A DNA stretch of 64,000 nt from a virus (Duplodnaviria; Caudoviricetes), in IMG/VR virus record IMGVR_UViG_3300017766_003100, positions 64,001 to 128,000 of that record; one strand, written 5' to 3'. The translations under genes were made by a program, and so were the position numbers. This document shows, piece by piece, positions 6,496 to 63,025 of the stretch (positions are counted from its first letter, which is position 1; every line of letters begins with the position of its first letter). A model generated the notes under the pieces. That model worked only from the letters and a program-made list of their open reading frames with translations. It did not search any database and was not told the DNA's origin.

Positions 6496-7403
6496 ATGAT
6501 AGATTATAACAATTTAACAAATATAGATAAAAATATTTCTGTATTCACCACAGTAGGTGCATCAGTTTGGCAGACTTGGCAAAAACCAAAAGGATGTAAA
6601 TTTGTACAATTTCTTGTAATAGGAAGTGGTGCTGGAGGTGGTGGAGGTAGGTCAACTACAGGTAACAGAGGAGGTGGTGGTGGTGGCGGTAGTTCGGCAA
6701 TTAGTAAATTATTTATTAGTGCTAATTTGATACCTGATGTATTATATGTTTTAGTTGGGGTTGGGGGTAATGGTGGTACTGCTGGTAATTCAGGTAGTGT
6801 TGGTCAGGTGTCTTATGTATCAGTTCAACCTGATTTAAGTCTTTATAATGTTTTAATTGGGAGTAGTAATACTCAACCAACTGGAGGTGTTGGGTCAGGA
6901 GGTAGTGGTGGTGGTGGCGGTGGTACAGGTGCTGCCGCTTTTGTACAGGGTACGGGGATACCTAGTTATAATGGTATTTTTACTTCAAATGTGGGTGTAA
7001 ATGGTGGTGGAGGTGGTTCGGCTGGTACTGCGGGGGTATCGATATCAATAGCAAATATTGTAACAGGTGGAGCTGGTGGTGGTGGAGCTAATACTTCAAT
7101 AGGGTTAGCTGGAGGTAACATCACAGGTAGTGGGTTTGTCCCAACCATATTAGGTGGTACTGGGGGTACTTCAACAAGTGGGTCAGGAAATGCGGGTTTT
7201 GGGGAATATAGAATGTGTGATTCATCAAGACCTCAAAGTATTTTTTTACAGGTGGTGCTGGTGGTGGAGCTAATGGTTCTGGAAATGGAGGTAATGGTGG
7301 TAATGGCTCTTATGGATGTGGAGGAGGAGGTGGTGGTGCAGGTTTAATTGGTGGAAGTGGCGGAAAAGGTGGAGATGGTTTGGTAATAATAACTTGTTGG
7401 TAA
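6496..7403 (+). CDS. Glycine-rich protein, paralogue 3, with a one-base frame break near 7241-7247 (frameshift, phase variation or assembly error)
   Basis: The zero frame stops at 7347 with an aberrant Val/Met/Glu tail. The -1 frame (open from 7221) encodes FFTGGAGGGANGSGNGG...GLVIITCW to TAA 7401-7403, matching the C-terminus of paralogue 2. Confidence 0.75.
6628..6683 (+). repeat. 56-nt direct repeat, copy 2
   Basis: Identical to 4838-4893. Confidence 0.9.
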
Positions 7404-7415
7404 TATTTATGACAT

Positions 7416-12358: not shown

Positions 12359-12386
12359 AAAAGGGTGAGAAATCACCCTTTTTTTT
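12357..12386. terminator. Bidirectional intrinsic terminator
   Basis: AAAAAAGGGTGA-GAAA-TCACCCTTTTTT(TT) between convergent genes. Confidence 0.9.
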
Positions 12387-13908
12387 ATGATTTTATAAAT
12401 CGATATGTTGTATAATTTTTATCTGTCTCAACAACAATATTATAAACTCCAACACCAAAATTATCTAAACTTAACATTTCTATATTAGAAATCAAAAATA
12501 TATTAGGTCTTGAATAAACTAACTGACCCATATTATTATAAATTTTTAAATTAAAAGTTTCACCCTTAACACTAAAATTTTCTAATATCAAATTATTATC
12601 TTTTGTGTAAATAAGAACATCATTTAATTTTGGGTCATTTATTGCAACCGCGGATATGTCAGAATATAACATTTGACCATCTTCAAACCATTTTAATCTG
12701 TAATAAGTAAATCCATTTGGTTTGGGAAAATTGTCATTAAAATCATAATATCTTTTTCCTAAGTTTGTGACATTAACAATACCAATAGAATCAAAATTAA
12801 TTCCATCTAATGATTTTTCAATAATAAACCCATCAATATAGTCATCAACAATAACATCCCAAGTTAAATAAACATCTTTATAATCTTTTCTATATTCGGC
12901 ATTAAATGATAATAATTCAAGGGGAAATAATACACAATCCAATGTTGCAGTACCACCAAATAATAATTGATAACCATTGCCAGTATTAGATAACCACTCA
13001 TCTACTACCAAATAATAAGTTTGACCTGCAGTTACATTCATTTGAGCTAAAAACCCATCTCCTGTAACACTTTCAACATTATCAACTGCTGTTGTATTTA
13101 ATCCAGTATTTCCAGTATTGCCTGAGTCTGAACATCTTAATGGAGTTCCCAAAGTACCACAAGTTACATTAGGACCATATATACTAAAGTCATAATCATC
13201 GGTATTTGTTTGTGGGTCAATTGTAAATCTAAGAGTACCACTAGATAATATTTCAAATTGATACCAATTAGAGTGGTTTTCACCACCAGCAGGACAAGTA
13301 GTACCAACACATCCTTCAGCTGTAAGTCCAGGTCCTCTTGCATTTACATTGGTTGTTATGTCTGAACAAATAAAAGTTGCTCTTGAGCAATCATTATTAT
13401 CTGTTATATTTGGGCCATTAGTAGGTGTTGCACAAGGGACACAAGACAATGAAGCACTCCATCCTGCGTCAGTTATTGACCCATCAGAAGTGAATCTAAA
13501 AGTTAAACATCCACTAGGATTGTTAGCTGTATATGTAAATGGTACGGCAGGTGCTCCTGAAATTCTACCATTTGGTACTGTGGCTGGAGGTGTTGTAAAT
13601 ACTGGTGAATTTTGGGTTGCACCATTACCTATGGTTAAAAAATCAAAACCAGTTTCAGTTCTAAATGAATTAAATGTCACCCTAACACAATTACCAGGGA
13701 TTGTTGGACAAAATACACGATAAAGTCCACCAAGAATACTATTTGAGTAGTTACCTCCAGCACCACCATTATCAAGATAAGTTCCACTACAAGTAGATAC
13801 TAAACAATTGGTAACTCTTTCTCCTTGAATACCTGTTGTACCATGTAGATAGGTTTGTGACCATAATAGGGAGGGAATAAAAATAAGTAGTAGTAAAATG
13901 TTTTTCAT
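12385..13908 (-). CDS. Secreted CUB-domain protein with a T9SS type A-like C-terminal sorting domain
   Basis: Signal peptide MKNILLLLIFIPSLLWS|Q. CUB-like segment (CSGTYLDNGG.GGNYSN...VRVTFNSFRTETGFDFLTI). Ig-like PLELLSF...YYRLK module. C-terminal IYNNMGQLV...GVYNIVV...RFIKS. Confidence 0.8.
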   Translation of the reverse strand: MKNILLLLIFIPSLLWSQTYLHGTTGIQGERVTNCLVSTCSGTYLDNGGAGGNYSNSILGGLYRVFCPTIPGNCVRVTFNSFRTETGFDFLTIGNGATQNSPVFTTPPATVPNGRISGAPAVPFTYTANNPSGCLTFRFTSDGSITDAGWSASLSCVPCATPTNGPNITDNNDCSRATFICSDITTNVNARGPGLTAEGCVGTTCPAGGENHSNWYQFEILSSGTLRFTIDPQTNTDDYDFSIYGPNVTCGTLGTPLRCSDSGNTGNTGLNTTAVDNVESVTGDGFLAQMNVTAGQTYYLVVDEWLSNTGNGYQLLFGGTATLDCVLFPLELLSFNAEYRKDYKDVYLTWDVIVDDYIDGFIIEKSLDGINFDSIGIVNVTNLGKRYYDFNDNFPKPNGFTYYRLKWFEDGQMLYSDISAVAINDPKLNDVLIYTKDNNLILENFSVKGETFNLKIYNNMGQLVYSRPNIFLISNIEMLSLDNFGVGVYNIVVETDKNYTTYRFIKS

Positions 13909-14046: not shown

Positions 14047-14230
14047 ACAATAAATGGTTGATGACTTACCAATAAAAGTTAGGGTGATGAAAAATCATCG
14101 GTGGACGAAAAAGATACATAGGTAAAATACATCGTAAGATGGTGTCCATTGGCTCTCCAGTATAAAGCCTAACTGGCGAAACCTTGATGAGAAGTAGGAA
14201 GAAAGGATGACGTAATTGTCATCCTTTTTT
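14047..14230 (+). ncRNA. Candidate structured non-coding RNA (~185 nt), family unknown
   Basis: Bounded by the promoter and a terminator; less AT-rich than the flanking intergenic DNA; several helices; only a 23-codon ORF. Confidence 0.4.
14202..14230. terminator. Intrinsic terminator
   Basis: AAAGGATGAC-GTAATT-GTCATCCTTT followed by T residues; may also serve the convergent minus-strand gene. Confidence 0.8.
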
Positions 14231-14813
14231 AATTTTTAATGGGATTACATTTTTGATATTTTTTATCATTAAATTTTTCTCCTTTCAATTGTGTCACCAT
14301 AATAATGTCATATAATCTTTTACCTGAAAAATTTTTTTGTATTTTAATTAGATTCGTATATTCAAGGTCATTATTAAATGTTATTAACTTTAAACAAATT
14401 ACCCTCTCCGACCAATTAAAATTTTGTATGTAATTAGTTATTTTACCCATACTTGAAAAAAGTAAATCAATTCCTTCAGTTGTTGTTGGGTCAACAATAT
14501 TTGGGTTATTTTCGTATTCAGGTTCTTTTTTTCTATCTAATCTTTGTAACCAATGGTCTGAAGGTTCAATAGTAAACCCCATTTTACTATTGGTATCATA
14601 ATAATATTCATCACCATTATTTTGATTTATTTGATTATAATGAGATTCAATATAATCTAACACATCATTCTCTTTGTCCACATCAATTTTAACTGTGGCA
14701 ATACCTTCGGTGAGGATTAGATATTTTTTTAATTCATAAAAACTAATTTGTTCAACTATTGTTTTTTGAGTAAAAAATTCCTCAATTAATATTTTTCTTA
14801 TCAAATTTCTCAT
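14229..14813 (-). CDS. Hypothetical protein with N-terminal MRNLIRKILIEE motif
   Basis: 194-aa ORF; TATTTAT on the minus strand at 14820-14826. Confidence 0.6.
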   Translation of the reverse strand: MRNLIRKILIEEFFTQKTIVEQISFYELKKYLILTEGIATVKIDVDKENDVLDYIESHYNQINQNNGDEYYYDTNSKMGFTIEPSDHWLQRLDRKKEPEYENNPNIVDPTTTEGIDLLFSSMGKITNYIQNFNWSERVICLKLITFNNDLEYTNLIKIQKNFSGKRLYDIIMVTQLKGEKFNDKKYQKCNPIKN

Positions 14814-16785: not shown

Positions 16786-16822
16786 TTTAAATAAATTAGA
16801 ATATTTATATATAAAAAACAAA

Positions 16823-22748: not shown

Positions 22749-23375
22749 TTATCTTGGTTTTACCATATTATAGATATATTCAGCAGCTTTATCAATGTTA
22801 TCAACACCCTTTCTCGTTAATTCAGTTCTAATTGTGTACAACATATATTTAAATCTAGATGCTGAAGGATTGTCACCATAACCTTTACGTGTTTTCACAT
22901 CCATAGGTAATAATTTTTTTTGTTGTAATTCTCTAACTTTTCTTACTGCAAACTCATCGGCAACAGCTTCATATTTCGCCATAGATTCGGCTGCTTCATC
23001 TAAAGGTATTTCGTTTAAATAAAGACCCATCATTTTTCCCTCACCATATTTTTTAAATTGATATTGATGTGCTAATTCGTGAAAGATAATAAAAAGTGTT
23101 TGAGCAATAGCGTTACGGCCATATATAGACATATACTTCGTATCTAAAACAATACTATTAATTACTAATTTATTATGTAAAGCTAACCCCATAGGGCCTG
23201 ATAAGTTTTCAAACGAAACTTTTTTACAATCAGTTTTTTCAAATATTGATTTCACTTCATCAATTAGTTCATCACTTAATTTTAATTCGTTTTTTAAGGT
23301 TTCAAGAAATTCATCCAAACCTTCAGTAGCTTCTAAAAGAAGTTTATATTGTGATTCTGTTATTATTATTTTCAT
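22749..23375 (-). CDS. Putative zinc metallopeptidase (HExxH)
   Basis: IIFHELAHQYQ and downstream YEAVADEFA, a zincin-type third-ligand pattern. Confidence 0.6.
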   Translation of the reverse strand: MKIIITESQYKLLLEATEGLDEFLETLKNELKLSDELIDEVKSIFEKTDCKKVSFENLSGPMGLALHNKLVINSIVLDTKYMSIYGRNAIAQTLFIIFHELAHQYQFKKYGEGKMMGLYLNEIPLDEAAESMAKYEAVADEFAVRKVRELQQKKLLPMDVKTRKGYGDNPSASRFKYMLYTIRTELTRKGVDNIDKAAEYIYNMVKPR

Positions 23376-24496
23376 TAGATTACATATATTTGTCTTGGCA
23401 TAGCTTGGAATTTCTTTACCTTGTTTAGATTTTCAGCAATTAAAGCTTCTCTTTCCATTACCTTTTCAGGTCTTAATCTACTTAGTCTACCTTCGGTACC
23501 AATTAATTCTTCAACTAATTTAGTTTTTTCATCCTTACCTTCAGTGGCTAAAGATTGATAATCCATTGTAAGTTCACTATCTGGTGTTTTAATGTTACCA
23601 CTAAACTTACCTCTAACTTTAGATAAGGTTTCTTTGGCTGTAGCAAAAAACCATTTACGTACCCAAATTTGTGCGGGGTTATTTAAATCAACCCAACTTA
23701 TTTTATCAAAAGGAACATCAGAAGGTAATTTAATAATATCAGGATTCTTTTTTAAACAATCATCTCTGTCAGCACCATCAACTTCATAATACCAATACCA
23801 TACTCTCCCTTTCATAAGTGTATTGTTACCAAAGTCAAACTTACCACCAGGTGTTTGCATTAAGTGAACGGCTTTTTTACCATCAGGTAATGCTGTTACA
23901 CGATAAGTCAAATCCCCCGCAATAATTCTTCTTTGGATATTAATTTCTTGCATTCTTAATAACATATCAAATGCTGGCATCATAAAGTATGAACCAGTAT
24001 AACCCATTTGTGAATAACCTGCAGGACCACCTAAACCCGCACCACCCAAAGCACCAAAACTCCAAGGGTCAAATAATAAATTATTTAATTCACCAGGTGT
24101 AAACCATAAAAGTTCATTTAATTCTCTACCCGCAGGTATTTCATATATTTGTTGGCCAGGTACAAGTTGTATGTAATCTTTTTTCATCACATTATCACCA
24201 CCTGCTTGTAAACCAACTATTTTAGAATAGGCATAAGAATATCGGTCTTCAAAATCAAAACTTTTGGTAATGAATGCTTTGGCTAAAGATTGGGTGTCTA
24301 AATTAAGACCATATAATGAAGTCCATTGTGATTCAATTAACCAATCTTGTATATATTGAGAATAATCCTCAATAGATAATTCTAATAAAGAGTCTAACAT
24401 TTCATCTTCCAATTCTATACTTCTTAGAGGAGCACCTAATAGGTGTCTTAATTTGGTATATAGTTTGGTTCTTTCTGGTTCGGCAATTATTGACAT
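23375..24496 (-). CDS. Neck / head-tail adaptor protein (T4 gp13-like)
   Basis: N-terminal LRHLLGAPLRSIELEDEMLD...SIEDY resembles gp13 (LRRLGAPIINVEL). Confidence 0.75.
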   Translation of the reverse strand: MSIIAEPERTKLYTKLRHLLGAPLRSIELEDEMLDSLLELSIEDYSQYIQDWLIESQWTSLYGLNLDTQSLAKAFITKSFDFEDRYSYAYSKIVGLQAGGDNVMKKDYIQLVPGQQIYEIPAGRELNELLWFTPGELNNLLFDPWSFGALGGAGLGGPAGYSQMGYTGSYFMMPAFDMLLRMQEINIQRRIIAGDLTYRVTALPDGKKAVHLMQTPGGKFDFGNNTLMKGRVWYWYYEVDGADRDDCLKKNPDIIKLPSDVPFDKISWVDLNNPAQIWVRKWFFATAKETLSKVRGKFSGNIKTPDSELTMDYQSLATEGKDEKTKLVEELIGTEGRLSRLRPEKVMEREALIAENLNKVKKFQAMPRQIYVI

Positions 24497-24518
24497 AATT
24501 AGTTTTTAATTATAAATA

Positions 24519-27248
24519 TCACCAACAATCAATCTCTTTAAAATCATCCACTTTAATAGGTTCAGTATTCAATTGAAGTTCATTAGTGTTTCTATCATAG
24601 ATGTATGATATTGCATTTTTGTCAATAATTTTAAAACGAATACTTAATCGACTTTCACTACAAGTTTTTTGTCCTTTGTTTGACCAATAAAGTTTAATAT
24701 GTTGGATTGGCACTACAACATTATTTTCAAAGAAAATACCTGCAATATTATTTCTAATTTTTTCTAAGAAACTTATAGCTATAGGATGGTCAAAAAGTTC
24801 AAGGTGTAAATAATTGATTATTTGATTATATACATCTAAGTGAGTTTCCTTAATTTTTTTAATTATTTTACTTCGTTTGAAAATTGAGAAGAATTCTGAA
24901 AGATAACTATCAACATTAGTATTCATCATTTTTACTTCAAATTTGTCACCCTTTTTGAAGATTACTTTGTCATTATAATAAAAATCTGACTTAGCAATTA
25001 AATCCGCTTTAATTGGATTTGTTTGTTTCATATTGTTAGTGATACATTTAACTAAATCATTTATAACTTCATCCAAACCTTTTTGACCACTTTTAACCAT
25101 TTCAACAACTTCAGCAAAATTACGTCTTTCAAACTTGTCACAAGTATATTTTAATTCTAATGACGTTTTAAATTCACCCATATAATCACCCTCCAAACTT
25201 GTTTCATAATTTGAATAAGCCTTTTCTCTAACTTGACTTAAAAAATTATCAAGGTTTTCAGTTTTAATATCAGATTTATTTTTTAATCTTTTCAATCTAA
25301 TTTCAGTTTCAGTATTATCAAATGTTGGGTCTGTTATAAATTTGGCAATAGTTTTGATAAAATTACCAGGTAAATCATTTTTTAATGCTAATTCTAATAT
25401 TTTATAAACTATACCCCTACCAAAGACTATGTGTCTAACTTGTCCTTTATCTTTTAATCTTGTGGACATTTGTGGATAATAAAAATTAATTATTGTATCT
25501 GCAGCTTTTATTATTTCTTCTTTTTCTTCACCTTCAATACTATCAATTACTCGTTGGAAATGACAATAGATATTATCAACTTTTTTGAAATTACATAGTT
25601 GTTCAATTAAATTTTCTTCTTTTTGAAAGATAATTGCTTCTATAAGTTTTTTTTGTTCTTCAGTTATTATTATTTTTTTAAGTTTTGATTCCGTAATTAA
25701 TTTGTTTAATCTTAAACTTGGGGATTTAAACTTAATTTTTTCAGTTTTAAAAATATAAGAATATCTTTGTAAAGATTGAGTTCCTTCATCTTTAATTTCA
25801 ATATTATCAAAATCAAAGAATATGTAGTTATCTTCATTATCAATGAAAGCAAATATTTGAATATTTTCAGGTTTATATTTGTTTTTACTTTTAAAAATAT
25901 AATTTAATTTACCATCCATTTCTTCTTCAAATAAATCTTTTGTTGGTTTCACTTGAATATTTTTGGACACCCCATTTTTGGTTACCATCATATCTTGTCC
26001 ATTGTATTTGTCTCTAATATCACCATCACAATATCTTAATACATCTAAATTTTTATATTTAGAGTTTAAAAGTTTAACGGCCAAATTTTCACGTTCAGAA
26101 CCTTGGTCTAATGTCCCTTTTTTGGTTTGAGGATTCATTATTACGTCTGCTAAAGTTTTTGTAAATTTACCCTCGTCACCAAATAAAACATTTTTCATTC
26201 GGTTCATCCAAACGCCAAAATCCAAATTATCCCTATTGTATTTTTCAAAAAACTCCAATATTTTTTTACTAACAATAACATTTGCATCAAACCAATTTAC
26301 TACTGACCATTCACCAACACCACCTCTTTGACTTACAGCATATTTCCCACCAATTACACCATAGTTAGTTTTACAATCATTTGTATCAATTTTACCATAA
26401 CAGGGAGATTCAATATGATTGTTAGCTGAATAATTTTTAATAATTTCAGGAGAACATTTTGGGTATACTTTTGATAACATTTCTTGAATAAACTTATAGT
26501 TAACCCTTCCGTTTGGTAATAAAGGTTCAGTTTGTTCAGTTATAACTTTTTTAGAAGTTATTGATTCTTTTAGTTTTGTTTTTAGTTTTGATAAATAAAC
26601 ATCATTAACGAATTCCCAATTCACAACATCCCAAAACCTTTTAATATATTCATCTCTTTTACTTTGATATTTCAAATAATAGGCGTGTTCCCATAAATCC
26701 AATCCCAATAAAGGATAACCACCATCAATATCATTCATTTGAGGATTGTCTTGATTTGGGGTTGTCATAATTTTCAGTCTATTGTTTTTGGTTAATACCA
26801 ACCAAGCCCAACCTGACCCAAATCTTCCAATAGATTCTTCTTCAAATTTTTTCTTAAATTCTTTGTAAGAACCAAATTCTTTATTTATTTTGGTTAATAT
26901 TTCTCCTTTGATTGTTTGTTTCTCAGGAGATAACATTTTCCAAAATAATGAGTGGTTGTAAGCACCGCCACCATTATTTCTAATTACTTTTGGATATCTT
27001 GTAATTGATTTAATTATATCTTCCAATTCAACATTACCATAATTCTTTTTTGATAAGGCATCGTTAAGTTTCTTAACATATCCTTTATAGTGGTTGTTAT
27101 AATGAACATTCATTGTTTTTACATCAATGAATCTTGTAAGGGAATCATAACCATATGGTAATTTATCAATACCAATCTTTTTGGCTTCAGTTATTAAACT
27201 TTCACCTAATAATATAGTTTCTTTTAATAGTTCTAATTTCTTTTCCAT
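24519..27248 (-). CDS. sodA: Mn/Fe superoxide dismutase fused to two large domains with nuclease-like motifs
   Basis: LPYGYDSL, HYNNHYKGYV, NNGGGAYNHSLFW, FGSGWAWL, NQDNP, DLWEHAYYLKYQ; then about 680 extra aa. Confidence 0.9.
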   Translation of the reverse strand: MEKKLELLKETILLGESLITEAKKIGIDKLPYGYDSLTRFIDVKTMNVHYNNHYKGYVKKLNDALSKKNYGNVELEDIIKSITRYPKVIRNNGGGAYNHSLFWKMLSPEKQTIKGEILTKINKEFGSYKEFKKKFEEESIGRFGSGWAWLVLTKNNRLKIMTTPNQDNPQMNDIDGGYPLLGLDLWEHAYYLKYQSKRDEYIKRFWDVVNWEFVNDVYLSKLKTKLKESITSKKVITEQTEPLLPNGRVNYKFIQEMLSKVYPKCSPEIIKNYSANNHIESPCYGKIDTNDCKTNYGVIGGKYAVSQRGGVGEWSVVNWFDANVIVSKKILEFFEKYNRDNLDFGVWMNRMKNVLFGDEGKFTKTLADVIMNPQTKKGTLDQGSERENLAVKLLNSKYKNLDVLRYCDGDIRDKYNGQDMMVTKNGVSKNIQVKPTKDLFEEEMDGKLNYIFKSKNKYKPENIQIFAFIDNEDNYIFFDFDNIEIKDEGTQSLQRYSYIFKTEKIKFKSPSLRLNKLITESKLKKIIITEEQKKLIEAIIFQKEENLIEQLCNFKKVDNIYCHFQRVIDSIEGEEKEEIIKAADTIINFYYPQMSTRLKDKGQVRHIVFGRGIVYKILELALKNDLPGNFIKTIAKFITDPTFDNTETEIRLKRLKNKSDIKTENLDNFLSQVREKAYSNYETSLEGDYMGEFKTSLELKYTCDKFERRNFAEVVEMVKSGQKGLDEVINDLVKCITNNMKQTNPIKADLIAKSDFYYNDKVIFKKGDKFEVKMMNTNVDSYLSEFFSIFKRSKIIKKIKETHLDVYNQIINYLHLELFDHPIAISFLEKIRNNIAGIFFENNVVVPIQHIKLYWSNKGQKTCSESRLSIRFKIIDKNAISYIYDRNTNELQLNTEPIKVDDFKEIDCW

Positions 27249-27362
27249 AAAATATAAATATCTTCTAAAAAATAAGTTTTAAATTGTATTTTTATTAATT
27301 TTGTGAACCAAAGTATAACTTTATAAGTTAATTATATTATTTCATCAAAAAATTAAAAAGTT

Positions 27363-27764
27363 ATGTCCCACAATATTGAAAATGGAGTTAAATCCAACAA
27401 TGGATTAAATACTGAGAAAAAATTTTCAGATTTAACAAATCTAAAAAAGACTTCAAATAATGAAAAACCTAAATTTATTAACTCGTATGGTAATGAACAA
27501 ATTATTGATTTTGATTTTCATACTACAAAAAATGATGTAAAAATATTCATTGATGTTTGTAGTACATTTAGAAGTGATAGAGCAAAACAAAAAGGTTATA
27601 ATGCTTTACTATATAAAATGTTTATTAGTACTAATTGTAAGTTCTATATTGGTGTGGGTTCATTAGTTGAAAATGGTTCTATTGTAAATCCAAAGAACAT
27701 AGAAGGTATTGATGGAATATATCATATTGATGAATTATCCAAATTGATTAATGAACATTATTAA
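27363..27764 (+). CDS. Small PD-(D/E)xK / restriction-endonuclease-like protein
   Basis: G...E..F helix, IIDFDF, IFIDVCSTFRSDRAKQ pattern; inserted opposite to its neighbours. Confidence 0.45.
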   Translation: MSHNIENGVKSNNGLNTEKKFSDLTNLKKTSNNEKPKFINSYGNEQIIDFDFHTTKNDVKIFIDVCSTFRSDRAKQKGYNALLYKMFISTNCKFYIGVGSLVENGSIVNPKNIEGIDGIYHIDELSKLINEHY

Positions 27765-29514
27765 TCCTATTCATAATTTGTTCAATGAATTCAGCCTTAT
27801 CCAAATTGTCACCCATCACAGTGTCAATGATATTCTTTTTATTGATTAACATATCATAGATAACACCTTCAATTGTATTTTCAAATATGGGATAATAAAC
27901 TGAAACACAATTTTTTTGACCATATCTATAAGCTCTATCTTCCGCTTGTTGGTGATGTGCGGGAACAAAAGATAAGTCATTAAACAATACAACCTCACCA
28001 GCAGTTAATGTAATACCAACACCTGCGGCTTGAACATTTCCAACGAATACTTTTATTTTATCGTTTTCTTGGAATTGGTCAACCGAATATTGTCTTTGAG
28101 TTTTACTACAAGTCCCATCCAAATAAACCGATTGTTTTCCAAAATGGGAATGTATTTTTTGTAAACTATCTGTAAAGTTCGTAAATACAATTACCTTTTT
28201 ACCTTGTTCCAATATATTCTCAATTAAACCAATTGTCTCCTGAACTTTCTCATCAGCAATAACTTGTCTTACTTTCATAAGTTTATTGAATTGCACAGTT
28301 AATGACTTTGATTCTTCAGGATGTTTATTATACCACTCATAATATTCCCCCATCAATTCTTCATATTGTTTTGATTTTAATCTCAAATAGATTGGGGTAA
28401 TAATTTTTTCAGGTAAATCTAATACATCAGTTTTTAATCTTCTCAATACTTGTCTTGATGTTCTATCTCTTAACTCTTCCAAGTTGGATGCACCATTAAC
28501 ATTCCAAACTTTTCTATTCCCAGCTTTAAATTGATAACCTTGACAATAACGTATAACATAAGCCATCCAATTTTGAGCAACAGGACTTTCAATTAGATTC
28601 AATAAGTTATAATAATTAATTGGTCTATTTGTCATTGGTGTACCAGTTAACAGCCAAAGATATTTTGATTTCTTTACAAAATCATTTATTAGTTTTGTTC
28701 TTGCTGCTTGGGGATTGGAAATATAATGAGCTTCATCAATTATAACCAAATCAAAATTAGCTTTTGCTATTGGTGAATTCTCTTTATTCTTTAAATCATA
28801 AAAGTTTTTAAGGATATCATAATTCACAATAACAAAGTCGTGGTCAGTAGAAAAATTCTTTCCCTCCGATATATAAACACTTCTATCTGTATAATTCCTA
28901 ATTTCTCTTTCCCAATTTATTTTAAGTGATGCTGGACAGATAATTAATATTTTCTTGATATCAGTTTCAAGTGCCGCGATGATTGTACTCGTGGTCTTCC
29001 CCAGTCCCATATCGTCAGCTAAAATAAATCTTTTACTACCAACCAATTTTTCTATTGCAATTTTTTGGTGTTCAAGTGGTGGTCTATGACCATACTTTGA
29101 ATAATCAATCTTAACTTCCTCTGTGTTGTGAGTTTTTAATAATGCGGCCTTGGGTAACCAAATATCAGTTAAAGTGTCACCTGAGTTAAATCTACCCCAA
29201 ATATGATATGATTTATCTTTATCCACCAATAACTTTTCAACCCAAATATCAGTTGGGATTGTTAACATATTTTTTTCATCCGCGATTTTATTTGCAAAAT
29301 AGGGTTCAATATTAACCCACTTCTTGGCAACCTTTGGTTCAACTGAATGATAGTTAATTATATATTCAGCTTGGGAACGAGTGGGATAGAATTTCTTATT
29401 GGTTTCTTTATGATTTTTTAGTTTTAAAATAAAGTTATTTCCACCTGAATATGTGTCCAAAATATCAAGTGCTTTAGATTCAATAAGATTAGATGTTTTA
29501 CCTGTTAAACTCAA
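27748..29514 (-). CDS. SNF2-family (SMARCAL1/HARP-like) helicase/translocase
   Basis: LADDMGLGKT, IIDEAH, LTGTPMTNRP, QAEDRAYRYGQ; TTG start. Confidence 0.9.
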   Translation of the reverse strand: MSLTGKTSNLIESKALDILDTYSGGNNFILKLKNHKETNKKFYPTRSQAEYIINYHSVEPKVAKKWVNIEPYFANKIADEKNMLTIPTDIWVEKLLVDKDKSYHIWGRFNSGDTLTDIWLPKAALLKTHNTEEVKIDYSKYGHRPPLEHQKIAIEKLVGSKRFILADDMGLGKTTSTIIAALETDIKKILIICPASLKINWEREIRNYTDRSVYISEGKNFSTDHDFVIVNYDILKNFYDLKNKENSPIAKANFDLVIIDEAHYISNPQAARTKLINDFVKKSKYLWLLTGTPMTNRPINYYNLLNLIESPVAQNWMAYVIRYCQGYQFKAGNRKVWNVNGASNLEELRDRTSRQVLRRLKTDVLDLPEKIITPIYLRLKSKQYEELMGEYYEWYNKHPEESKSLTVQFNKLMKVRQVIADEKVQETIGLIENILEQGKKVIVFTNFTDSLQKIHSHFGKQSVYLDGTCSKTQRQYSVDQFQENDKIKVFVGNVQAAGVGITLTAGEVVLFNDLSFVPAHHQQAEDRAYRYGQKNCVSVYYPIFENTIEGVIYDMLINKKNIIDTVMGDNLDKAEFIEQIMNRINNVH

Positions 29515-29561
29515 AGTAAATTTTTAACATAAAAATAGTTGATATCTTAATATTTATCAAT

Positions 29562-31309: not shown

Positions 31310-31360
31310 TCAATTTACATATACATATTACGAAGTAAAGTATTTTGCATTTTTGTTCAA

Positions 31361-31376
31361 TATTTATGTATAAATA
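31361..31376. promoter_or_regulatory. Palindromic pair of TATTTAT motifs (sheath gene and RHH gene)
   Basis: TATTTAT-GT-ATAAATA. Confidence 0.5.
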
Positions 31377-35032: not shown

Positions 35033-35053
35033 AATTAAGACATATTTATTAAT

Positions 35054-35938
35054 ATGAAAAATACTATAATCAGAATTCTTAGAGAAATAGAAGAAAGAGA
35101 AATACCTATGAAGTATTACGCTTTCGATTGGGATGATAATCTAATGTATATGCCAACACAAATTTATTTATTAGATGATGATGGTGAAGAAGTTGGTATG
35201 GGTACTGAAGATTTTGCTGAACACAGAACAGAAATAGGTAAAACACCTTTTGAATATAAAGGTTTTACAATTGTTAATTTTGCACCAAATCCTTTTAGAG
35301 ATTTTAAAACCGATGGGGATGGTAAGTTTTTAAGAGATGTTATGAGTGCTGAACTTGCTGAGGATGCTGCTTGGCCTGATTTTGTTGAGGCAATTAATAG
35401 TGGGTCATTATTTTCAATAATAACAGCTAGAGGACATAGACCTAACACATTAAAAAGTGGGGTATTAAAATTAATTAATTCAAATAGAGGTGGAATTGAT
35501 TCTGATGAATTATATGCTTCTTTAGTAAGAATGAGAAAAAATGCTGGTGAAAAACCTAAAGATAAAGATACTGAAATTAAAAAGTATTTAGACTTATGTA
35601 GATTCTATCCTGTTACATATGGAGAAGGTTCTGCAGCAAATCCTGAAGTTGCTAAAATTTCAGCAATGAATAAGTTTAAAAGTTATGTTCAAGCTCAAGT
35701 TGATAAACTTAATATTAGATTATCCAAAAATATTGAAAATAAGATATCTAATAAATTTGTACCAATTATTGGATTTTCAGATGATGACCCAAGAAACATT
35801 GAAGCAATGAGTAAGGGTGTAAAGGATATTAAGATTTATTCAACACATGGTGGAAAGAAAAAATTATATAAAAGAGAAGAAGATGAATTACAATTAGAAT
35901 ATAAAATAAAAAGTATTATTAAAAAACTAATTAAATAA
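35054..35938 (+). CDS. HAD-superfamily phosphatase-like protein
   Basis: YYAFDWDDN (DxD motif I), IITARG (motif II), GFSDDD..N (motif IV). Confidence 0.7.
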   Translation: MKNTIIRILREIEEREIPMKYYAFDWDDNLMYMPTQIYLLDDDGEEVGMGTEDFAEHRTEIGKTPFEYKGFTIVNFAPNPFRDFKTDGDGKFLRDVMSAELAEDAAWPDFVEAINSGSLFSIITARGHRPNTLKSGVLKLINSNRGGIDSDELYASLVRMRKNAGEKPKDKDTEIKKYLDLCRFYPVTYGEGSAANPEVAKISAMNKFKSYVQAQVDKLNIRLSKNIENKISNKFVPIIGFSDDDPRNIEAMSKGVKDIKIYSTHGGKKKLYKREEDELQLEYKIKSIIKKLIK

Positions 35939-36035: not shown

Positions 36036-36050
36036 ATATTTATAATAATA
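36036..36050 (+). promoter_or_regulatory. Extended TATTTAT motif upstream of the tube gene (second copy at 35943-35957)
   Basis: ATATTTATAATAATA occurs twice in this 140-nt AT-rich spacer. Confidence 0.55.
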
Positions 36051-51936: not shown

Positions 51937-52161
51937 ATGAGCGTAAAAATATTATTAGATAATTATTTAGGTAAAAACACCAAAACAACTGAAAAAGACT
52001 TAGGTGATGGTTCTAAACAAGTATGTGATTTAGAAACTGGTGAATGTTATGTTGTTAGAATGAAAGATGGTTTAATTGAAAGAGTAGATAATACACTCAA
52101 AACACACAAAAGAATCCAAGTTGAAACTACTAACGGAATAAAACAACTTTTAAATGGTTAA
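51937..52161 (+). CDS. Hypothetical protein
   Basis: 74-aa ORF with TATTTAT at 51917-51923; contains VCDLETGECY. Confidence 0.6.
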   Translation: MSVKILLDNYLGKNTKTTEKDLGDGSKQVCDLETGECYVVRMKDGLIERVDNTLKTHKRIQVETTNGIKQLLNG

Positions 52162-52165
52162 TAAA

Positions 52166-52876
52166 ATGAAAGTAGATATCAGAATACTTAATGAAATAAG
52201 ACGATACAAAGACATTAATAATTACATTTTTGAACAAGATGTACCACCACCACCTCCTGGTGAGGCAGGAGCCGCTGCACCGCCTCCACCACCCGCTGAT
52301 GCTGGATTAGGTGCACCTCCTCCACCCCCTGCTGGTGAAGTACCTGGTGGAGCACCCCCACCTCCTGGTGGTGTAGCCCCAATTACGCCTTCACCTGAAC
52401 CTGTTAATGTTGAACAAGACCCTGAAGTTGAAAAGGTTGATGATAAGACAAAAGAGAAGAAAATTAAGGTAACTGATTTAGTTAAGGGACAAGAAAATGT
52501 TGAAAAGAAACAAGAAACATATTTTGAGAATCTATTTCAGCAACTTGATGATTTAGAAAATAAATTATCAAGTATGGATAGTATTATTGACAAATTAAAT
52601 TCTATTGAAACAAAAATAGAAAAATATAGAGTAAAAACACCTGAAGAAAAATTACAATTAAGAAGTTTAGATTCAGGTCCTTTTAATCAAAAGTTAAGTC
52701 AATTCTTTGATGAAAAGGAAGATGAATTTGAAGAGACAGGAAAAGAACAATATATTCTAACTCCTGATGAGGTTGAAAATTATTCTCCGAATGAAATTAA
52801 AAAAAGTTTCAGAGAATTTAAAGATACTGAAGACTTCGATGGATTTAATAATAGTGGATTTCAAAAAATTTACTAG
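52166..52876 (+). CDS. Proline-rich, coiled-coil hypothetical protein (likely start 52166)
   Basis: Poly-Pro/Ala tract followed by a heptad-rich segment (LDDLENKLSSMDSIIDKLNSIE). Confidence 0.6.
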   Translation: MKVDIRILNEIRRYKDINNYIFEQDVPPPPPGEAGAAAPPPPPADAGLGAPPPPPAGEVPGGAPPPPGGVAPITPSPEPVNVEQDPEVEKVDDKTKEKKIKVTDLVKGQENVEKKQETYFENLFQQLDDLENKLSSMDSIIDKLNSIETKIEKYRVKTPEEKLQLRSLDSGPFNQKLSQFFDEKEDEFEETGKEQYILTPDEVENYSPNEIKKSFREFKDTEDFDGFNNSGFQKIY

Positions 52877-62979: not shown

Positions 62980-63025
62980 GTTTTATGGTATTTATTGAAA
63001 AATATTCGGTTATATATTTATTATT

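Follow-up and report, generated by a model that had tools for sequence, protein, structure and literature searches.

Three described systems come closest to the gene examined here, P0001, an open reading frame (ORF) of 909 amino acids (aa) that joins a superoxide dismutase (SOD) to two further modules, D2 and D3. The gene lies in a 64,000-nucleotide stretch of DNA (the window), positions 64,001 to 128,000 of the Caudoviricetes record IMGVR_UViG_3300017766_003100. One of these systems is the cargo of the phage T4 head, where the cuts of the protease gp21 follow L/I-x-E (PMC9026906); by its action the internal proteins lose their capsid-targeting sequences of 10-20 residues, Alt loses both of its ends, and the core proteins are broken into several pieces (PMC9026906; PMC5694885). 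Another is the group of polyvalent proteins, polypeptides of phages and conjugative elements that each combine several unrelated effector-type domains and for which embedded metallopeptidase domains have been proposed as the means of release (PMC5512222). The last is the Cu/Zn SOD of the eukaryotic virus PBCV-1 (A245R), which is late, packaged in the virion and thought to lower superoxide early, according to the account of Kang et al. 2014 given in PMC7019647.

In comparison with these precedents, we give an even chance to the idea that P0001 is a late-expressed cargo polyprotein, loaded into the head by means of short tags and cut by the head protease into SOD, D2 and D3; that it is a polyprotein of this kind is well supported by comparison among relatives. 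With the targeted T4 proteins (IPI, IPII, IPIII and Alt; PMC9026906; Mullaney and Black 1996, as summarized in PMC5694885) it shares a short N-terminal tag of 10-20 residues that ends in L/I-x-E and is found on unrelated proteins, a gp21-type protease in its lineage, a capsid protein that keeps an L-x-E/A site, and an expression that is apparently late. It differs in the form of the tag, here MKIIITExQYxxLxE, in having tags also within one chain, between three enzyme-like modules, and in a cargo that includes a SOD. The capsid-targeting tag of T4 itself is of the MKTYQEFIAE type. The likeness to the polyvalent proteins (PMC5512222) lies in the several unrelated effector-type domains on one polypeptide, in the shuffling of these domains between relatives, in the association with lysozyme and HExxH domains and in the proposed proteolytic release. 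Unlike them, P0001 has no embedded zincin-like metallopeptidase that Pfam can detect (the HExxH N-terminal domain of some relatives is likewise without a family match), and it is the head protease, working at sites derived from the tags, that we propose as its cutter; superoxide is not mentioned in PMC5512222, and D2 and D3 have no Pfam family. As for the PBCV-1 enzyme, it too is virus-encoded, late and in the particle (for P0001, as proposed), but in the account available through PMC7019647 it is a Cu/Zn and not an Fe/Mn enzyme, single-domain, from a eukaryotic virus and without proteolytic release. No precedent for a packaged viral SOD is known outside that eukaryotic virus (PMC7019647).

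The fusion itself is real, because single contigs span the ORF without differences and orthologues keep its architecture. The identical sequence was recovered across the whole ORF in single contigs of three freshwater metagenome runs, and a run that is not flagged as a possible source of the DNA (X6) bridges both domain junctions, so that the ORF is continuous in four freshwater runs; every run in which the sequence occurs comes from fresh water or a lake. IMG/VR contigs have orthologues of unchanged architecture that are 56-86% identical. An assembly artefact or a missed stop codon, which the spanning contigs and the orthologues rule out, was considered and discarded. When the whole of P0001 was searched with tblastn against isolate phage records, the SOD part alone was matched and the fusion was found in no isolate.

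The anatomy that the initial annotation had read from the letters, a complete SOD followed by two nuclease-like domains, has held up, the third domain being nuclease-like by its motif. The N-terminal module is, by family, a complete Mn-type Fe/Mn superoxide dismutase. Pfam identifies Sod_Fe_N (PF00081) at aa 27-107 (8e-20, 71.5 bits against a cut-off of 27) and Sod_Fe_C (PF02777) at aa 114-216 (7e-40, 135.6 bits against a cut-off of 20.9), and S. aureus SodA (PDB 5n56) aligns over residues 5-196 of its 199 (1.9e-61); the closest solved structures are Mn or cambialistic (Mn/Fe) SODs. Both the sequence and the 5n56 alignment give H49, H99, D184 and H188 as the metal ligands, and these are invariant in six orthologues. 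In Mn-type enzymes the second-sphere Gln comes from the C-terminal domain (NQD) and there is no Gln at the GG(G/A) of the N-domain; P0001 has the corresponding signatures, NNGGGAYNH (G93-G94-G95) and PNQDNP (N165-Q166-D167). The nearest cellular SODs belong to Ignavibacteria and to Apibacter, a genus of the Flavobacteriales. In other relatives (L072, 6078-7619(-); L065; L066) the same locus has the SOD joined to different modules on its C-terminal side (513, 493 and 498 aa), for which no known family was matched. The SOD gene is a hot spot of module exchange.

The 670 residues outside the SOD match no Pfam or PHROG family, and neither D2 nor D3 was assigned to a family when searched on its own against Pfam and PHROGs, and profiles of the two modules drew no match among PDB sequences. 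When 1.84 billion representatives were scanned in full by HMMER with residues 225-909, there were 148 matches, which map to two independent modules: D2 (about 240-520), with stand-alone forms of 250-350 aa, and D3 (about 525-909), with stand-alone forms of 375-440 aa. That both occur as separate genes in relatives bears out what the initial annotation had proposed to look for, and many of these genes start with the very tag that lies inside P0001. Further architectures are SOD-D2, SOD-D2-D2, SOD-D3, HExxH-SOD-D3 and HExxH-SOD-D2. By hhalign the two modules have no similarity to each other apart from the tag. D3 is followed by a lysozyme and LysM in P0015 and preceded by a peptidoglycan-binding domain in P0084, which suggests that it travels with cell-wall-degrading cargo. 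A search of 185,579 species genomes gave neither D2 nor D3 (the D3 profile had no relative there), and a HExxH-SOD-D3 query of cellular genomes returned cellular SODs only (at best 55-56% identical, in Ignavibacteria and Apibacter), plus one 570-bp binned contig.

AlphaFold models built on the family alignments reached a pLDDT of 94.3 for D2 and 92.1 for D3. In its model D2 has a PD-(D/E)xK fold (the restriction-endonuclease-like alpha-beta-beta-beta-alpha-beta core) in a D..QxK variant, just as the initial annotation had supposed from the motifs GQDMMV (417-422) and IQVK (431-434). Residues 379-511 superpose on PD-(D/E)xK enzymes with a Foldseek probability of 0.99-1.0, and nearly the entire list of the top 50 structure matches has this fold. 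E387 and K434 are invariant and D419 and Q432 are at least 90% conserved, all four being placed on the expected helix and strands of the model. The second acidic residue of the motif is replaced by Q432, which we take to be an Mrr-like variant. This sets D2 apart from its closest known counterparts among the PD-(D/E)xK nucleases, the archaeal Hjc resolvases, the homing endonuclease I-Ssp6803I and the restriction enzyme NhoI, where Asp or Glu is usual at that position, and D2 also has an extra 140-residue, Cys-containing N-terminal half; at the sequence level it matches none of the solved nucleases. This half (aa 239-378; 26535-26114(-)) has conserved C264, C283, C292, W314, S315 and N318 and no fold match; a recognition domain stabilised by a metal or by disulfides is one possibility. 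For D3 the predicted D...ExK motif is present (KADL at 747-750, FEVK at 770-773) and fully conserved. Across 62 aligned sequences E682, K747, D749, E771, K773 and E785 are invariant, among them the catalytic-type Glu...Asp...Glu-x-Lys set (E682, D749, E771 and K773) despite identities of 21-51%. D749 precedes a strand in the model and the ExK lies on the next-but-one strand. Structure comparison of the predicted D3 model gave no clear fold match; it is for D2 that the structural half of the earlier proposal is supported.

The Lys-rich linkers described in the initial annotation were located at aa 7-22, 225-239 and 517-538, and its remark that the internal one nearly repeats the start of a separate gene proved correct: KKIIITEEQKKLIEA within P0001 resembles the N-terminus MKIIITESQYKLLLEA of ORF 22749-23375 (P0002, a HExxH protein), and the window holds only these two occurrences. 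The same tag, MKIIITExQ(Y/L)xxLxE, thus stands at 524-538 of P0001 and at the start of its neighbour. In the more general form MK[IV][IV][IV]TExQ[YL]xxLxE it begins 27 of the 119 full-length homologues of D2 or D3, some of the others bearing yet other leaders. In the stand-alone D3 protein P0017 (374 aa, MKIIITEEQY...) the alignment with P0001 begins at residue 2, opposite aa 525, which makes the internal tag the old N-terminus of what was once a separate D3 gene. An internal translation start for D3 was rejected: L523 is encoded by CTT and no promoter motif lies upstream. Without a start codon at the internal tag, D3 could therefore be separated from the rest only by proteolysis. The linker between SOD and D2 looks like a shortened tag, and the first 22 residues of P0001, which include the pre-sequence, correspond in L006 and L007 to an internal linker after the HExxH domain.

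The tag is not peculiar to these modules. On an ENA contig (L074, 10001-13947) four adjacent unrelated genes, encoding D3, a protein with lysozyme and LysM, and unassigned proteins of 367 and 187 aa, all begin with tags of the MKIIITESQ type, and a second tag, M[RK]xLI[KR]xILKE, begins five further adjacent genes of the same contig (17862-20056). In the D2 and D3 homologues the first 30 residues contain [IL]-x-E at 2.4 to 3.9 times the density of the rest of the sequence. Among the SOD fusions compared (about 20, with seven or more architectures) the N-border invariably reads [LIF][LI]-x-E-[AM]-KKIG, and about six residues past the SOD end there is [LI]-x-E-[S/A/N], whatever follows. In P0001 the last pre-sequence motif, ITE21/A22, lies directly before the SOD N-terminus and E21 is invariant in orthologues; by the PDB alignment the border sites bracket the complete enzyme, from A22 to E228, and the acidic border residues are conserved in all relatives.

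Several observations on leaders and tag DNA can be recorded here. The second tag also begins ORFs 14229-14813(-) and 35054-35938(+) of the window; in the form M[RK]N(L/T)I(R/I)(K/R)IL(I/R)E this leader class is seen on these two and on 52154-52876(+), ORFs that are unrelated to one another, and several genes with such a leader lie near the head module of the related record G006 (L070). The [ILV]-x-E leaders of this genome include MKIIITESQYKLLLE. The DNA that encodes the tag (ATGAAAATAATAATAACAGAATCACAATAT; 23316-23390(-) and 25626-25700(-)) is nearly identical between unrelated genes and between contigs. Such DNA could act as a microhomology or recombination handle for the shuffling of cassettes, which would explain the origin of the fusions.

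The lineage has a counterpart of the T4 prohead protease, to whose (I/L)-x-E cleavage the initial annotation had referred. A gp21-type protease (phrog_207, about 1e-44) was found in five of the five related records that have a head module (G006 to G010). For two relatives, 318 and 322 kb long, the completeness ratings are 96% and 100% (G007 has 100%), and G009 carries a 65%-identical SOD-D2 fusion along with the protease. Peptidase_S77, Gp23, phrog_207 and phrog_138 were not found in the five records identified through P0001 relatives (G001-G005), which says nothing about the phages themselves because these records lack the head module. In the capsid protein of G007 the motif LINE/A aligns with E65/A66 of T4 gp23, a correspondence of the motif and not of a cut itself. 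In G007 the terminase and portal genes are followed, in this order, by two small genes, the protease gene, that of a tagged D2 homologue (MKITISEGQYKILSEY) and those of an acidic scaffold and of the capsid protein; D2 can therefore occupy the slot of the T4 prohead core proteins. In G008 the corresponding place, after the protease and before the scaffold, is taken by two small proteins whose tags are of the MKKVIRLTE type.

By its gene content the window is from a T4-like myovirus: it encodes tail sheath, tail tube and baseplate hub proteins, a family B DNA polymerase, an SNF2 helicase, a UvsX-like recombinase, a gp32-like single-stranded DNA-binding protein and endonuclease VII. Related fragments represent 24-41% of a genome by CheckV estimates, which puts the genome at about 290-320 kb. 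The timing of expression is suggested by an octamer, ATATTTAT, just upstream of P0001. Of its 17 copies in the window, a total no higher than chance, 13 lie at most 65 nt upstream of co-oriented gene starts, those of gp13, sheath and tube among them. Its core, TATTTAT, precedes the terminase, core protein, protease, D2 homologue and scaffold genes of G007. ATATTTAT is therefore very probably the promoter type of morphogenetic genes, and probably the late promoter in phages of this group; the T4 counterpart is TATAAATA. Sites of the octamer near the starts of virion genes are found at 7403-7410, 16801-16808, 24512-24519(-), 27254-27261(-) and 29550-29557, with further ones at 31360-31367, 35042-35049, 36036-36043 and 63014-63021.

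The mechanism that we propose would run as follows. Three modules that are separate genes elsewhere (SOD, D2 and the nuclease-motif D3) have been joined in one frame, with the gene tags retained at the joins; these tags are similar to the capsid-targeting sequence of T4, and their last residues form the [L/I]-x-E that is cut by a gp21-type head protease. In a T4-like freshwater phage of roughly 300 kb, the chain would be made together with the head proteins and be taken by its tags into the prohead core, where the protease may cut after E21, after E228 and/or E238, and after E520, E530 and/or E537. The predicted products, a SOD of about 207 aa, a D2 of about 282 aa and a D3 of about 372 aa, would remain inside the capsid and be delivered to the host along with the DNA. 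There the SOD might lower superoxide early in infection, and the nuclease-like modules might act on nucleic acid. We infer the packaging, the cutting, the delivery, the SOD and nuclease activities and any role in countering host defence. The interpretation offered in the initial annotation, a head-packaged polyprotein releasing a SOD and two nuclease-fold proteins, is in this sense partly supported, the parts that gain support being the anatomy, the SOD, the D2 fold, the stand-alone genes, and the protease and the L-x-E/A capsid site of the lineage.

A number of points weigh against such a cargo. Packaging and cutting are both read from comparison. Of the 17 [LI]-x-E motifs of P0001, 8 fall within the 66 residues of the linkers (Fisher p 7e-6), but the linker limits were drawn only once the motifs were known, which weakens the test, and [LI]-x-E is a three-residue motif in a proteome rich in Lys, Glu and Ile. 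The protease is seen in relatives only, and these are about 78% identical in a neighbouring protein. The P0001 gene lies beside neck, helicase and polymerase genes, outside the head module. A SOD that is oligomeric and depends on a metal would have to come through the tail intact, and an active nuclease packed with the genome would need some means of self-protection; moreover, D2 has Q for the usual acidic residue and D3 is without a clear fold match.

A rival reading is a multidomain enzyme that remains uncut in the cytoplasm late in infection, its SOD protecting replication and its nuclease-like domains acting on host DNA, while the tags and their [LI]xE motifs would be leftovers of fusion that now serve as flexible linkers. 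The gene does have replication and neck genes around it, linkers rich in Lys and Glu occur commonly where genomes are AT-rich, near-identical tag DNA could give rise to tolerated fusions by recombination, and the packaging of P0001 is something that we infer. Nevertheless, we consider this explanation unlikely, since the border Glu and the hydrophobic residue two positions before it persist at 56% identity and in seven or more architectures, whereas the rest of the linkers drifts. The tag is also conserved at the protein level on unrelated proteins, P0001 and the head genes have the late-type promoter motif in common, and in G007 the gene that separates protease from scaffold is a D2 homologue. 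A further possibility is that the tag is a signal of another sort, perhaps a docking helix for neck or tail assembly, a chaperone handle, or a translational or recombination element, with the protein being associated with the virion surface or neck or not in the virion at all. The P0001 gene adjoins the co-oriented gp13-like neck gene, the tag is conserved at the DNA level too, and AlphaFold models part of it as a helix. Yet the tag ends in a protease motif, and the tagged genes include both the lysozyme and LysM protein and the D2 homologue in the slot of the prohead core, which makes such a role highly improbable in our view.

If the chain is cut, the cutter might instead be a zincin-like HExxH peptidase, as in a polyvalent protein (Iyer and colleagues 2017), be it P0002 or the N-terminal HExxH domain of relatives. 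L006, L007, P0026 and P0066 do have a HExxH domain fused ahead of the SOD, P0002 has a HELAH motif and a weak SprT-like match (1e-3), and the release of polyvalent proteins by embedded metallopeptidase domains has been proposed (PMC5512222). This seems very doubtful, however, because the HExxH domains have no significant match to a peptidase family, the orthologues L003 to L005 are without the P0002 gene and their linkers are unchanged, and the border motif fits the specificity of gp21 and the site in the capsid protein. Homology between P0002 and the fused domain of relatives was likewise rejected, HExxHxxQ being all that aligns.

Table 1. P0001, its parts and its immediate surroundings (coordinates are those of the window).
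Feature	Position	Strand	Residues and notes	Family or reference
P0001, SOD-D2-D3 fusion ORF	24519..27248	(-)	909 aa	
Pre-sequence	27186..27248	(-)	aa 1-21 (MEKKLELLKETILLGESLITE); three [LI]-x-E motifs	
Mn-type Fe/Mn superoxide dismutase (by family)	26565..27185	(-)	aa 22-228	PF00081 + PF02777; PDB 5n56
Linker 1	26535..26564	(-)	aa 229-238 (SITSKKVITE), between LKE228/S and ITE238/Q	
Module D2	25689..26534	(-)	aa 239-520; Cys-containing N-terminal half and PD-(D/E)xK core	
D2 PD-(D/E)xK core (modelled)	25716-26114	(-)	aa 379-511, with E387, D419, Q432, K434	
Internal tag	25638..25688	(-)	aa 521-537 (SKLKKIIITEEQKKLIE); border ITE520/S; ITE530/E and LIE537/A inside	
Module D3	24522..25637	(-)	aa 538-909; helical N-terminal part and alpha/beta core	62-sequence alignment
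Promoter-like motif ATATTTAT	27254..27261	(-)	5 nt upstream of the P0001 start codon	
T4 gp13-like neck protein	23375..24496	(-)	next gene downstream; own ATATTTAT motif	phrog_211 head-tail adaptor Ad2, 1e-8
P0002, HExxH protein	22749..23375	(-)	208 aa; starts with tag MKIIITESQYKLLLEA (nt 23328-23375)	

With respect to the neighbouring genes (Table 1), an orthologue of the gp13-like gene matches PF26809 (Phage_T4_gp13). The SNF2 helicase ORF beside P0001 has 588 aa here (27748-29514(-)) as against 966-973 aa in some relatives (for example L003, 4354-7254, and L007, 3500-6421); the difference could be due to an insertion, an intein or an added domain. Elsewhere in the window, 12385-13908(-) encodes a 507-aa protein with a signal-peptide-like start, a weak DUF3244 match and a weak match to the C-terminal sorting domain of the type IX secretion system, T9SS (Por_Secre_tail, E 0.0045). 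Taken with the nearest cellular relatives of the SOD, this protein hints at a host of the Bacteroidota type.

New here are the internal tags in a three-enzyme chain, the SOD as a putative cargo and the definition of the D2 and D3 families, two widespread phage protein families that had no annotation. More tentatively, and with the balance of our own opinion somewhat against it, P0001 may belong to a swappable cargo system of giant T4-like phages of freshwater Bacteroidota-type hosts. A 15-residue tag would there be capsid address, cut site and recombination handle at once, tagged genes would be strung into polyproteins that the head protease takes apart, and P0001 would provide the first capsid-delivered SOD of a bacterial virus, injected together with two nucleases. 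The cut sites that this predicts are exact, and the tag offers a simple sequence rule by which candidate injected proteins can be listed in uncultured giant phages. If the proposal is true, the capsid-targeting principle of T4 would hold beyond single, small internal proteins, for chains of several enzymes that are taken apart in the head, and an antioxidant enzyme would be added to the proteins that phages deliver with their DNA.

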